From Escherichia coli (lineage in GTDB: Bacteria; Pseudomonadota; Gammaproteobacteria; Enterobacterales; Enterobacteriaceae), in NCBI RefSeq assembly GCF_048403405.1, contig NZ_CP183129.1: a DNA stretch of 64,000 bases; one strand, written 5' to 3'. This document shows, in pieces, positions 1 through 6,000 of the stretch (the stretch's first letter is position 1; each line of letters begins with the position of its first letter). The position numbers were made by a program.

Positions 1-3000
1 AAAATAATAAAAAACAAGGACACATCATGAAGGATGAAATACACAGTACCAGCATTAACCCGGATGTTGTTGAGCAGTTTCTGGCCCTTATGAACACACA
101 TTGTAAATCCTCAGAAGAGGCACTCGCCATGCTGAGTACGCTTTGTTACAACCTGATGATGACATGCGGTATCCATTCCATGGACAGCCAGATGCTCAAT
201 GGGCATGGGATATCCATGCAACTTCAGGGGATTGATATTGCCGAAAGGCCAGGCAAGAATATTCACTAACCTGAACAGGGCCTGAAAACGCTGTCTTTTC
301 AGGCCTCTGCAGGCAAAAACTGATGACAACAAAATTTCTGCGTTTGTACCCCACCGATGAAAAAGACAAAAACTCACACCGGGCTTCTAGCCAGTAAAGA
401 TAAAACCCGACGTGTCAGCCTCTACGAAACGCCAACGGCATGGTGTATCAGGGGGCAGGAGTGCTACAGCAAAAGTACAGGACGCCGCTGTGGCAGCCAC
501 GACAGTCTGAGCAGACTGCGCCTGGACAGCATTAAGCCTGTTGAATGAGTGGTGGCACCATGAAAGATAACAACACAACCGCCACCCCAGAAGCCTGGAA
601 AATGCGTTTTCTGGCCAACGGGACATCCGGCACATGGTTTTACACTGAAGACATTGCAGTCACTGACGCGTGGCTTCGCGCGCACCCGGATGATGTGGAG
701 GTTATCCCTCTCTGCCGGATACAGCCCCGCCAGTATTCCCATGAACAACATATTGAAGAACTCCGCGCAGCCCTGGCCCGGATGCTGCATATGCATCATA
801 TGATGCTGGAAACCACGCATTACAGGGAAAACATCACCGATGCCCGTTGTATCCGTGAAATGCATGAAGCTCCATTACAGGCGCTCAATATTCTGGCCAG
901 ATACCCGCATAAAAAGGACGAGGTGTGACGCATGTGGCTACTGATTTTCTGGCTTTCATCTCCCTTTAATGTCTCTTCCGGTGATGCCCGGCAGCCCACA
1001 CTGGCGGTGCACAGCCAGGCATTTCATACCGAACGGGCCTGTCGCGATGCATTGCGCGCCATTAAAAAGGAGAATGTTGGCGAATTTTCTCTGCGGGGCG
1101 TTTGTGTTTCTGACGGAAATACGAAGGAGGAGGCTGAGAGCTCATGACGGATATTACTGACAGACATACACTTCGCCGTATGTCCTGGTCGGAACTCTTC
1201 ACGGCAGCACAGGAAGCGGAATTTCAGCGTGATTACGAGCGTGCCAGAATAGTGTGGTCATTCGCCTTACATGTTGCAACAACCACGATTAACAAAAATC
1301 TGGCCATAGCTCATATTCGACGCTGCGATACTTTGTTGCATAAATCAAAAACAGTACCCGGAAACAACACGGGGGGCCGGTCAGTGTGCCTGAGACCCCA
1401 ACATCCCCGGAGATGACTGACATTTCCGGACTGACGCAGTTGTTGCATATCTGTGGCAATACGTTGTATCCAGCCAAGTTGCGTTATTTCGTCGGTTGTT
1501 TCGTGGGCGTAGTGATGTATGGGGCCTTCGATGGGAAAGTAAAACTAGCGGAAAATAAAAGTACTCGCCTGCCTACGGACCTTTTTACTCAGGGTATTTT
1601 TGTTTTCCATAACGTTGCGTATTAACATGAAGGAGAACGAGGGGGATTAGGTAATCTCTTTCCATGAAAATACGCAAACGTTCATCACCGAAGTGAAAAA
1701 TCAGTTTTTGATATTTAAATGATTTTTCAAATCATATTTCAGCAGGACACTACCAGCACCTAACAGCAGCACATCTTTGATGACAAAACTGTCAACTTTT
1801 CCCAGTTGTGGTAACAGACTTAGTGTGACTAAACCTGTAACAATAACGATAATATCTCCCAGTATGCCAGCAGCAGGCCTGAAGAAGCCGATACTCAGTG
1901 CTAGAAAAGTGATAGTTTCCACTATGCCGAGGAAATAGCTCCCCCCATGAACACCAAACATAATGTACAGGATATTCAGCCACGTGGGAGAAATCAGGGG
2001 CTTGAGGGCCATCACTTCAAAATCAAACCATTTATAGGTCCCGAAGAGCATAAATATTATAATAACAGACAGGCGAAGAATAACTATGTCATAATCTGAT
2101 TTAATGTAAACATTAATAAATTTTTTCATTTCATTCTCCGGGTGGAAAATTATATGCACTAAAAAGGATTAAGTACGGGTATCAAGCATTTTAATTAAAG
2201 CGTTAACGGTTCCTGAATAGGTATCATGTGGTGGAAGTCGATTTAACATCAGTGCCCCCTTTAGTGTAGAACAGACTATAACGGCGAGCTCATCCGGAAG
2301 AAGAACTGTTTTGAACTCTCCACTATTCTGCCCGGAGGTGATAATATCTTTAATCATCTGTATCTCCTGATGTGCCAGTTGACTTACAGCCTCCTGTAAT
2401 TCAGGAGAAAACTGATGGCTGTCGGATAGCATGGCATAAATACCGCACATTTCCCCTCTTTCAGCACAACCAGCAAATGCATCAAGATATGTCCTGAGAC
2501 GTTGTACACCAGAAGAAACATTATGGAGAGTTATATTAAGTCTATCAAATACTTCTGTTTTGTATTGGCAGTAGGCTATACCAAGATCAGTTTTCCTCGG
2601 GAAATGGTGATGAATACTGGCTTTTCTGATACCAATTTCTTTTTCCAGATCTGCGTAACTGAACCCCAAAAATCCGCGTTGCTGGATCAGAGTATCCGTT
2701 ATGCGAAGTATATTCTCATAAGTAGACACGGCTTTACCTGTTATGTATTAAAGGGACTATTATACATATTTTAACGATAGATAATGGCAGTTCCATCAAG
2801 TTTATTTTTTCCTCCCAATGAAGTGATTCGGAAATGAGAACCTCCTGCCTGCTCCGCTTTGTCTTTAAGCGCAGTTGCCACCTCTTCTGGTGTATATAGA
2901 TTACCAACAGAAATATAGTCTGACGGCATCAAACCAACAACGTCCTGACGATTAATTTCATCTGCAGCAGTTGCGTAGCCTGTCAGAATGAGACCAAGGG

Positions 3001-6000
3001 CGACAATGGTAGTGCAGATAACATAATTCATGAGCAGTTTCTCTTTATGTTTGCGATACTACACATGCTACCTTCTGATTGGTAGGCTTGCAAGATGGAT
3101 TTATTTAAAATAAGAGGGATGATTTGTATCAAATTGTTTTGTATTTTTGTGTTTTGTATCACTGAGGTGAAGTTGTAAGATCTGGCCCTCTGCGAGGTTG
3201 GCTCTGTCGAAAGGAACAGGTGACGAGAGTTAACATCGTTGCCTTGGCTGCATGGGGGATATGTAGCTACCCCCTGATATTTCCGCCACGGAAGCCAATA
3301 TGAACAACAATAACAATACGCCTCGTTTCCAGTATGCTTCATGTCGGATATTTTGTAAGCGCTATGTACTTCCCGGGACGCTTATCTTTTAGCCGTAGCT
3401 GGTAGTGCAATAAAAGCCTGGCAGCAATCCAGGCCTCTACGTTCTAAGAATCAACTGTCAGTGCAGAGGAATGCGCACGACGCTCTCGTTGTTATTGGCT
3501 TTTGCCGTCGCACCGTCGTTTTTCACGGTGACAAACAGCGCGTGCGCTTTGCTATCCGTCTTATATCACTGGTGCTGACAATGTGGATGAGGTCGCCTTT
3601 AAAAAAGGCCATCGTTATATAACGGTGATCTCCGATCGCGATGGTCGTGCGCTGGCCTTAACGGACGATTGTGGCACAGAGAGCCTCGCCGGCTATCTTC
3701 GCACGCTTACTGACGAGCAGTTGCTGGCTATCAAAACGCTCTCAATGGACATGAATGCAGGCTATATAAGAGCAGCGCGTATCCACTTACCCTGTGCGGT
3801 TGAGAAAATCGCCTTCGACCGCTTCCATGTAGCAAAGCAACTTGGCGAAGTGGTTGATAAAACCCGTCAGAATGAACATCCGCACCTCCCTGTTGAAAGT
3901 TGGCGTCAGGCAAAGGGGGCCCGCTTCCTGTGGCAGTACAGCGATAAATGGATGACCAAATCCAGGCAGGAAAAGCTGATATGGCTGCGTGCACAGATGA
4001 AGCTGACAAGCCAGTGCTGGGCGCTGAAAGAGCTGGCAAAGGATATCTGGAACAGGCCATGGAGTGAGGAAAGACGTAATGACTGGGAGAGATGGCTGGC
4101 TCTGGCGGCCAACAGTGACGTTCCTATGATGAAAAACGCCGCGAAAACGATAGGAAAAAGGCTTTACGGGATCCTGAATGCCATGTGTCTCAAACGGAAA
4201 CGCGGAGGCGCTTAACAGTAAGATCAGGCTACTGAGGATAAAAGCCAGGGGATACCGAAATCGGGAGCGCTTTAAGCTGGGCGTGATGTTCCACTACGGG
4301 AAACTGAATATGGCGTTCTGAGCCTTCCCATCATGATCAGGGAAAACCCATGTATCATCAGGTTATTATGTGAGCTGGTAAATCAGATTTTGCATGGACT
4401 GAAATCATGCTGTTATTTAGGGATAAAGAACCGGCTTTTTGTCCCGCCCCCTCGCCATTAATGAGAAAAAGAATGGAATGCTCCCTCTGAGGAGAAGGGC
4501 AGTAGAAAAAAGAACCCGCCAGCAAAAATATTGGGGATGAACAGCTTTCGCTACTCAGATTGCTGGCGGGTATAGTTCCTCATGAAATAAAAATACTACG
4601 TAGTCTTTTTAATGCAAATGATAATCATTGTCAATTGTTTGTGCGTGTTTTCTTCATACATGATTGGTAGTAAAGGTGATTCAGGCTATCAGTTTTTGCT
4701 GATGATCTTTTTATCTATAGAAAACATCAGCCAAGCTGGTTGGTTCAGTAACGCTTTCATCTTTGAGCATTTTATAAAAAATTCTTGAATTGTTAAAATA
4801 GATTAAAGTCTGGTAACAGCAAAAGTTAAACGAGAAATCAAAAGGAGGTCCCAAATCTGAAAATGAAGCATCTGCGTGATGATGTTGCAGCGGGACGTCG
4901 TCGGCTGTATATCAGAGCAATCTGTCCATCCCTGCGTGAAGCCCCGTTACTTTATTCGTACCCCTTATAATGGGGTGTTAGCCAGCCAGACCCGGCATGA
5001 TTACTGTGAACCGCCCCGGGAATCCTGGAGACTAAACTCCCTGAGAAAGAGGTAAACAGGATGACTAAAAATACACGTTTTTCCCCCGAAGTCCGTCAAC
5101 GGGCAGTTCGTATGGTTCTGGAAAGTCAGGACGAATATGACTCACAAAGGGCGGCAATTTGTTCCATTGCTCCAAAGACTGGCTGTACGCCAGAGACTCT
5201 GCGTGTCTGGATTCGCCAGCATGAGCGGGATACCGGGGGCGGTGATGGTGGGCTCACCACCGCTGAACGTCAGCGTCTGAAAGAGCTGGAACGTGAAAAT
5301 CGTGAACTGCGCCGCAGTAACGATATCCTTCGCCAGGCTTCCGCTTATTTTGCGAAGGCGGAGTTCGACCGCCTCTGGAAAAAATAATGCCACTGCTGGA
5401 TAAGCTGCGTGAGCAGTACGGGGTCGGACCGGTATGCAGTGAACTGCATATTGCCCCGTCAACGTATTACCATTGTCAGCAGCAGAGACATCATCCTGAT
5501 AAACGCAGTGCCCGTGCGCAGCGCGATGACTGGCTGAAGAAAGAGATACAGCGCGTATACGATGAAAATCATCAGGTGTACGGTGTGCGTAAAGTCTGGC
5601 GTCAGTTGTTACGGGAAGGAATCAGGGTGGCCAGATGTACAGTGGCGCGCCTCATGGCGGTTATGGGACTTGCCGGTGTTCTCCGGGGTAAAAAGGTCCG
5701 CACTACGTCAACCGGAAAACCGTTGCTGCAGGTGACCGCGTAAACCGTCAGTTCGTGGCAGAACGTCCTGACCAGCTGTGGGTGGCTGATTTTAATTACG
5801 TCAGCACATGGCAGGGCTTCGTCTATGTGGCGTTCATCATTGATGTGTTTGCCGGATACATCGTGGGGTGGTGGGTCTCATCGTCTATGGAAACGACATT
5901 CATGCTGGATGCGCTGGAGCAGGCGTTGTGGGCCCGCCGTCCGTCCGGCACCATCCATCACAGCGATAAAGGCTCTCAGTATGTGTCACTGGCCTATATG

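Follow-up and report, generated by a model that had tools for sequence, protein, structure and literature searches.

Does the three-gene stretch at positions 1701-3031 of the DNA analysed here only resemble rcrARB, the operon which explains the tolerance of neutrophil-derived bleach by many uropathogenic Escherichia coli, or is it that operon itself? The DNA in question (the window) is a stretch of 64,000 nucleotides from an E. coli genome (NCBI RefSeq assembly GCF_048403405.1, contig NZ_CP183129.1), for which an earlier reading (the original prediction) had proposed an rcrARB-like unit made of BhsA-family, TetR and DUF417 genes, in that order. Three intact open reading frames (ORFs) were indeed found, co-oriented on the minus strand and transcribed in the proposed order, each with Pfam support (Table 1). 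They are separated by spacers of 41 nt (rcrA-rcrR) and 39 nt (rcrR-rcrB; 9 nt with the rcrB start at 2159). The segment 1501-3400 (1900 nt) matches E. coli CFT073, in which it is present as a single copy, with 100% identity, as it does many other human isolates. The system had therefore been recognised correctly, but the qualifier “-like” does not stand, as the sequence is that of rcrARB from CFT073. The corresponding genes are labelled in RefSeq as coding for a DUF1471 protein, a TetR/AcrR regulator and a DUF417 protein (C_RS17090-17100), while Sultana et al. (2022 mBio, PMC9600549) renamed c3599, c3600 and c3601 rcrA, rcrR and rcrB.

The identity extends to the tools and residues used in the published work. 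The deletion, quantitative PCR (qPCR) and electrophoretic mobility shift assay (EMSA) primers were taken from Table S4 of Sultana et al. 2022 (PMC9600549), and 20 out of 20 sequences (full or gene-matching parts) were placed on the window with an exact match at one site each. The arms of the deletion primers abut all three ORFs and the qPCR primers fall within them (for rcrA, the deletion and qPCR primers are at 3029-3082, 2720-2773, 3008-3022 and 2881-2895), while those for the neighbours c3597 and c3602 land in the ORFs on either side (3761-3886 and 970-1085). RcrR matches the Pfam TetR_N (residues 7-49, 2e-07) and TetR_C_13 (residues 74-168, 4e-08) models, and its cysteines are at positions 54, 88, 95 and 153, the four residues examined in PMC9600549; the redox-sensitive cysteines expected of the TetR protein are thus all there. 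Cys54, Cys88 and Cys95 are invariant in RcrR homologues of 74% (Klebsiella) and 51% (IncN plasmid) identity, while Cys153 varies, as was also described in PMC9600549. The match of RcrB to Pfam DUF417 (PF04224) is significant and falls into two parts, with values of 6.3e-11 and 3.7e-09, which cover positions 7-57 and 83-173 of the 175-position model; the part left out in between corresponds to a loop absent from RcrB. A hydropathy scan shows four hydrophobic segments. With residues counted from the GTG at 2159 (152-aa form), as in the 2026 preprint (Sultana et al. 2026 bioRxiv), the protein has K43, W44, M50, W60, K121, F125 and K128.

The identity to CFT073, the unique primer sites at the ORF borders and the residues of RcrR and RcrB identify the stretch, on sequence grounds, as the rcrARB operon itself, which is already published and not new. 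Nothing contradicts this identification. We put at about 97% the probability that rcrARB (c3599-c3601) is here a horizontally acquired unit of defence specific to hypochlorous acid (HOCl), carried by a CFT073-like strain in its pheV-type pathogenicity island. Compared with the published descriptions (Sultana et al. 2022 mBio, PMC9600549; Crompton et al. 2023; Sultana et al. 2026 bioRxiv), the nucleotides, the gene order, the primer positions and all the Cys, Lys and Trp residues important for function are the same; the differences are the CFT073-like host, an rcrB start placed 10 codons downstream and an added candidate operator. What we infer in addition (the RcrR operator and promoter, the N-terminus of RcrB and the plasmid relatives) is incremental.

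Table 1. Features of the 64,000-nt window referred to in the text, by position in the window.
Feature	Positions	Strand	Remarks
rcrA (c3599)	2771-3031	minus	ORF of 86 aa; first gene of the operon
rcrR (c3600)	2169-2729	minus	ORF of 186 aa; GTG start
rcrB (c3601)	1701-2129	minus	142 aa from ATG; 1701-2159 gives 152 aa from GTG
Ten-codon N-terminal extension of the original c3601 annotation	2130-2159	minus	Not conserved as coding in Klebsiella pPUTH1; absent from homologues
Predicted sigma-70 promoter of rcrARB	3065-3093	minus	-35 TTGCAA (3088-3093), 17-nt spacer, -10 TAGCAT (3065-3070); predicted from sequence
Candidate RcrR operator	3067-3086		20-bp dyad CCTACC-N8-GGTAGC; occupies the spacer and runs into the -10; predicted
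A/T-rich block TCATCCCTCTTATTTTAAATAAAT	3099-3122	minus	24 nt; a few nt upstream of the predicted -35; near-identical in the Klebsiella plasmid
PrcrARB EMSA fragment	3029-3461	minus	Published as bound by reduced RcrR; bounded by primers Pc3599-fw/Pc3599-rev
Small hypothetical ORFs	27-269, 545-928, 932-1147, 1144-1416		Travel with rcrARB in E. coli
TOTE conflict-system primase domain fragment	~1474-1554		81 nt; travels with rcrARB in E. coli
MXKDX Met-rich peptide	28344-28586	minus	80 aa, 12 Met; NCBIfam 35 bits, cutoff 41
MsrP-like molybdoenzyme	28641-29384	minus	NCBIfam MsrP 71, cutoff 207
Cytochrome b, frameshifted	29384-29982	minus	Two overlapping frames (29587-29982, 29384-29698); frameshift also annotated in CFT073
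Response regulator	30120-30842	plus	Pair divergent from the rest of the second module
Histidine kinase	30843-32315	plus	Same pair as the response regulator

The function of the unit is known from CFT073, for which the HOCl phenotype of deletion mutants is already published (PMC9600549), and the HOCl that is sensed and neutralised is the bleach made by neutrophils (published work on uropathogenic E. coli). According to the model drawn for the identical CFT073 sequence, which a 2026 review summarises in the same form, reduced RcrR binds upstream of rcrA in unstressed cells and represses all three genes. HOCl or chloramines then oxidise RcrR, with the formation of intermolecular disulfides, release of the DNA and derepression of the operon, and RcrB quenches HOCl at the inner membrane, for which glutathione is needed. 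In the underlying experiments (PMC9600549), reduced RcrR bound a 440-bp upstream fragment, and binding was reversibly abolished by N-chlorotaurine but not by hydrogen peroxide (H2O2). RcrR was described there as a sensor of HOCl and chloramines in which Cys54 and Cys95 are functionally essential, the C54S and C95S variants binding DNA poorly and failing to complement. Deletion of rcrR raised rcrA expression 105-fold and that of rcrB 24-fold, while deletion of rcrB made CFT073 as sensitive to HOCl as K-12 and lowered its survival in neutrophils. Most of the additional resistance to HOCl and neutrophils in strains of this type is due to RcrB. The protein was subsequently described as a four-helix inner-membrane protein which lowers extracellular and periplasmic HOCl, and whose action requires the periplasm-facing K43, W44, W60 and K128 as well as glutathione synthesis (Sultana et al. 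2026 bioRxiv). Given the identical sequence, HOCl-specific derepression and RcrB-dependent resistance to HOCl and neutrophils would apply here as published for CFT073.

The composition of the unit also brings to mind other systems, the first of which is that of NemR. If RcrR were an electrophile sensor of the NemR type, the unit could be a general electrophile or biofilm-stress module around its BhsA-like protein, and c3600 does carry the (KEGG-style) label “repressor for nem operon” in the RNA-seq table of PMC9600549. NemR is also a cysteine-based HOCl sensor according to the review, and NemR-nemA-gloA shares with rcrARB a TetR-family repressor which is inactivated by reactive chlorine via cysteine and thereby derepresses its own operon. 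The targets differ, however, being a reductase and a glyoxalase for NemR and a membrane quencher for RcrR; neither nemA nor gloA adjoins the locus, RcrR gives no match to the NCBIfam NemR model and there is no significant NCBIfam relationship between the two systems. The NemR box has a sequence different from the CTACC-N8-GGTAG dyad discussed below. As for RcrA, its membership of the BhsA/YhcN stress-protein family (Pfam YdgH_BhsA-like, 1e-12) fits the idea of a biofilm-stress module. Its score against the NCBIfam BhsA/YcfR equivalog NF047859 (47.6 bits) is under the 90-bit cutoff, and it is therefore a member of the YdgH/BhsA/McbA domain family rather than BhsA itself. Its N-terminus is signal-like (…GYATA|AD…), and it is a small periplasmic DUF1471 protein to which no role is assigned in the published work. 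The deletion of rcrA has no HOCl phenotype, the effect being carried by rcrB (PMC9600549), and both induction by and protection from oxidants are specific to reactive chlorine species, as opposed to H2O2 or hypothiocyanous acid (HOSCN), in the published rcr work. A NemR-type module is for these reasons very improbable.

Less probable still is that the locus duplicates the RclR regulon (rclABC) of K-12, or is a variant of it, acting in the manner of RclC and RclB. The two systems do share some features: both are HOCl-responsive units with a DUF417 protein (RclC in K-12) and a small DUF1471-related protein (RclB), RcrB and RclC are 25% identical (E 1e-09) and share the K…KD residues, and RcrA is weakly similar to RclB (E 1e-05). 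K43 and K128 of RcrB are invariant even in RclC, but W44 and W60, which are kept in the RcrB-type homologues, are not. RclC is longer (197 aa), with two long loop insertions that RcrB lacks, and RcrB scores 22.4 bits against the NCBIfam RclC equivalog NF040476, for which the cutoff is 275; as with RcrA and BhsA, this sub-threshold score makes RcrB a member of the family without being RclC. The regulators are also of different kinds, a TetR repressor in rcrARB and an AraC-type activator in K-12. The flavoenzyme RclA has no rcr counterpart, neither rclA nor an AraC-type RclR gene being found within 6 kb, and rclABC belongs to the chromosomal core while rcrARB belongs to an island. The low identity, the missing loops and the absence of rclA or an AraC-type regulator nearby indicate that rcrARB is a relative of the Rcl system and not a copy of it, and that RcrB is not the RclC orthologue.

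That the locus is an inactive remnant in a decaying island, as the fragments of ISL3, IS3 and TOTE-primase genes flanking it and the natural knock-outs seen elsewhere (E. coli FDAARGOS_1290, with an IS5 within rcrB, and strain EC22, which has lost the rcrB part of the locus) might suggest, is hardly credible given three intact ORFs, genes and an upstream region (1501-3400) that do not differ from the locus shown by experiment to be active in CFT073, and an allele found with at least 99% identity in 736 records. The sequences of FDAARGOS_1290 (positions 501-2128 of the retrieved stretch) and EC22 do show that natural loss-of-function rcr alleles exist; the rcrR and rcrB frameshifts in the bovine strain C25 were not counted among them, since they may be assembly errors. 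The wider distribution of rcrARB was assessed by querying 5426 complete E. coli genomes with the 1.9-kb segment 1501-3400. A match was found in 801 of these, covering at least 80% of the query in 732, nearly all with at least 99% identity, and 25 of the places with an rcr match are on E. coli plasmids.

With rcrARB established as the reading of the locus, the question arises of where RcrR binds. No palindrome, footprint or defined RcrR binding site is mentioned in three rcr papers of the Dahl laboratory or in the 2026 review. Upstream of rcrA, a dyad (exact pattern site at 3068-3085) falls inside the published 440-bp EMSA fragment and lies within a predicted promoter (Table 1). We compared four promoters from three lineages, namely CFT073, the Klebsiella plasmid (RcrR 74% identical) and the two of the IncN cassette (RcrR ~52%), and found that the block formed by the -35, the dyad and the -10 (TTGCnn-17 nt-TAGnnT) is the only part conserved among them. 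The dyad is thus the likely operator of RcrR, and as it overlaps the -10, repression would work by blocking RNA polymerase at this element. Two other inverted repeats upstream of rcrA (an 18-nt one, 72%, across the start codon, and an 11-nt one at 3411-3439) were discarded, neither being conserved. The A/T-rich block preceding the predicted -35 could be an UP-like element or the site of a second regulator; in pairwise and four-way alignments it is shared with the Klebsiella plasmid but absent from the IncN cassette. A hairpin in the rcrA-rcrR spacer (2730-2770) was considered as the cause of the lower induction of rcrB, and rejected, as the fold is no better than that of shuffled sequences (z = -1.0).

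The occurrence of the dyad outside of these promoters was examined by scanning one genome per species with the pattern CTTGCNNNYCTAYCNANNNNNNGGTAGNNT, which gave 70 sites in 68 loci, of which ~35 would be chance matches by a rough estimate assuming uniform base composition. Of the 5 dyad positions left free by the pattern, at least 3 are complementary in 33 of the 53 distinct sites, against 5.6 expected. A gene for an RcrR-like TetR protein is found near 27 of the 70 sites, usually starting 36-150 nt downstream (~1.46 kb in Marinobacter), and six further sites, in Cedecea, Rahnella and Citrobacter, lie ahead of rcrA-like DUF1471 genes. As the rcr promoters were the source of the pattern, what the scan establishes is a wide occurrence of the dyad and its link to RcrR-like TetR proteins, which is not the same as binding by RcrR. 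In Cedecea, Rahnella and Citrobacter, the dyad promoter occurs 2-3 times on separate contigs, each time upstream of a different DUF1471 gene of ~140 aa, and this suggests that RcrR-type regulons in these genera have several unlinked targets. A near-identical site, CTTGCCCGCCTACCTACTGGCGGGTAGCCT, recurs in many Amycolatopsis species; an RcrR-like TetR protein was not detectable between -2.5 and +4.5 kb of these sites at E<1e-3.

The start of rcrB was also reconsidered. The deletion primer for c3601 ends at 2160, from which it follows that the authors took the GTG at 2159 as the start codon. A GGAG motif is found at 2136-2139, 6 nt ahead of the ATG at 2129; the GTG has none ahead of it. GGAG-N6-ATG is preserved in the Klebsiella homologue, which is 75.5% identical at the nucleotide level, while its GTG is replaced by GGG and the 30-nt extension contains a 2-nt indel. 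The Klebsiella and IncN homologues, as well as RclC, all start at the position of the MKK/MKN/MEK motif, and RefSeq also calls an RcrB of 142 aa. Translation of rcrB thus probably begins at the ATG at 2129, the stretch 2130-2159 probably being an untranslated leader which holds the Shine-Dalgarno sequence of rcrB, and the published RcrB numbering is probably 10 too high. This shift leaves the published conclusions unaffected.

This picture is subject to some qualifications. The source strain is a close relative of CFT073 (99.5% identical over 39.3 kb) with a differing flank, and function in this strain would follow from the identity of the 1.9-kb unit to CFT073. The chemistry of RcrB, whether catalytic or sacrificial, and the route of electrons from glutathione rest on a 2026 preprint. 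A generic sigma-70 scan of positions 1500-3700 gave no convincing promoter for rcrA and did not list the one predicted here, so that the proposed promoter rests on its conservation across lineages; a terminator scan of the same positions gave none after rcrB. Finally, the dyad is not rare within the window (2 matches with at most 1 mismatch, against 3.7 expected), for which reason its count was not used as evidence and its support comes from conservation.

Relatives of the operon are also found on plasmids of other enterobacteria. Approximately 590-680 Klebsiella plasmid records contain a homologue with 75% nucleotide identity, and protein identities of 79% for RcrB and 74% for RcrR. The neighbourhood of one such plasmid was retrieved, that of pPUTH1 (IncFIB/IncHI1B) from a carbapenem-resistant hypervirulent Klebsiella pneumoniae strain, in which the rcrARB homologue lies directly beside the aerobactin receptor gene iutA (positions 2111-8189 of the retrieved stretch) and is followed by genes for a carboxymuconolactone-decarboxylase-family protein, a DM13 protein and a 306-aa DUF1471 protein. 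Our literature search returned no paper that connects RcrB with virulence plasmids of Klebsiella, nor a discussion of the iutA-linked cassette in relation to neutrophil resistance. A second type of cassette, found on IncN and other plasmids, consists of genes for a BhsA-like protein, a TetR protein (~52% identical to RcrR), a DUF1471 and a DUF417 protein, followed by a small ORF, msrB and msrA. In the IncN plasmid pCf-N3 of Citrobacter freundii (positions 1529-4639 of the retrieved stretch), it has two promoters with the same dyad in both; the first promoter region is duplicated, 1263-1380 being repeated at 1416-1533. The cassettes travel on Klebsiella plasmids together with iutA and on IncN plasmids together with msrBA, which points to bleach-defence genes being more widely mobile among hospital enterobacteria.

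Taking these threads together, we lean towards a combined reading in which the dyad is the RcrR operator and also the operator type of a broad subfamily of RcrR-like TetR proteins (in enterobacteria, Marinobacter, Pseudoalteromonas, mycobacteria and others), RcrB has 142 residues with the published numbers shifted by 10, and the iutA-linked cassette on hypervirulence-type Klebsiella plasmids could add to the neutrophil resistance of the strains that carry them; as a whole, it appears reasonably probable to us. If the dyad is such an operator type, RcrR-type regulons would become predictable from sequence. Enterobacterial-type rcr loci were also seen on contigs of 51,766 and 15,444 bases assigned to “Chryseobacterium sp. 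18061”. Contigs of nearly equal length (51,740 and 15,432 bases) belong to “Citrobacter sp. 18056” from the same project, which suggests that the Chryseobacterium assembly is contaminated or mislabelled.

The surroundings of rcrARB in the window are largely those of CFT073, with 99.97% identity over the first 9.4 kb and 99.5% over the first 39.3 kb (coordinates derived from CFT073 are approximate beyond ~9 kb of the window, with a 6-nt drift by 30 kb). The first 25 kb are 100% identical to strains DA33137, 4621 and MS 69-1. We take c3599-c3601 to lie inside PAI-CFT073-pheV, within the published limits of that island. The alignment to CFT073 ends at a tRNA-Phe gene (window ~39295), the remainder (39296-64000) being unlike the core flank of CFT073 on the yqgA-speC side. 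Judging from where the match ends, the island may be set in other surroundings in this strain, such as a different Phe-tRNA site. According to the CFT073 annotation, rcrBRA (1.7-3.0 kb) is followed by ISL3 and IS3 remnants, pap (~6.8-16.8 kb), insertion sequence elements, hlyCABD (~19.9-27.2 kb) and a second module. The adjacency of rcrARB to the pap operon claimed in the original prediction therefore holds loosely, as papI (~6837-7070) is ~3.8 kb away from rcrA with ISL3/IS3 transposase remnants in between.

Its further claim, that two putative oxidant-defence units flank the adhesin and toxin operons, holds, the second module being present at 28.3-32.3 kb with pap and hly between the two. 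The closest known match to this module is with systems of the MrpX-YedY1Z1 type and MsrPQ with HprSR of E. coli, which likewise combine a Met-rich peptide, an MsrP-like enzyme, a cytochrome b and a two-component system. In contrast to these, all of its scores are under the NCBIfam equivalog cutoffs and its cytochrome b gene is split. The module is not part of the rcr unit. A cluster of this kind, with a Met-rich peptide and a methionine sulfoxide reductase, is mentioned as conserved in uropathogenic E. coli in the discussion of PMC9600549. On the other side of rcrARB, the four small ORFs and the TOTE-primase fragment that accompany it in E. coli are also present on plasmid pC17EC0299-2, where they lie beside iha.

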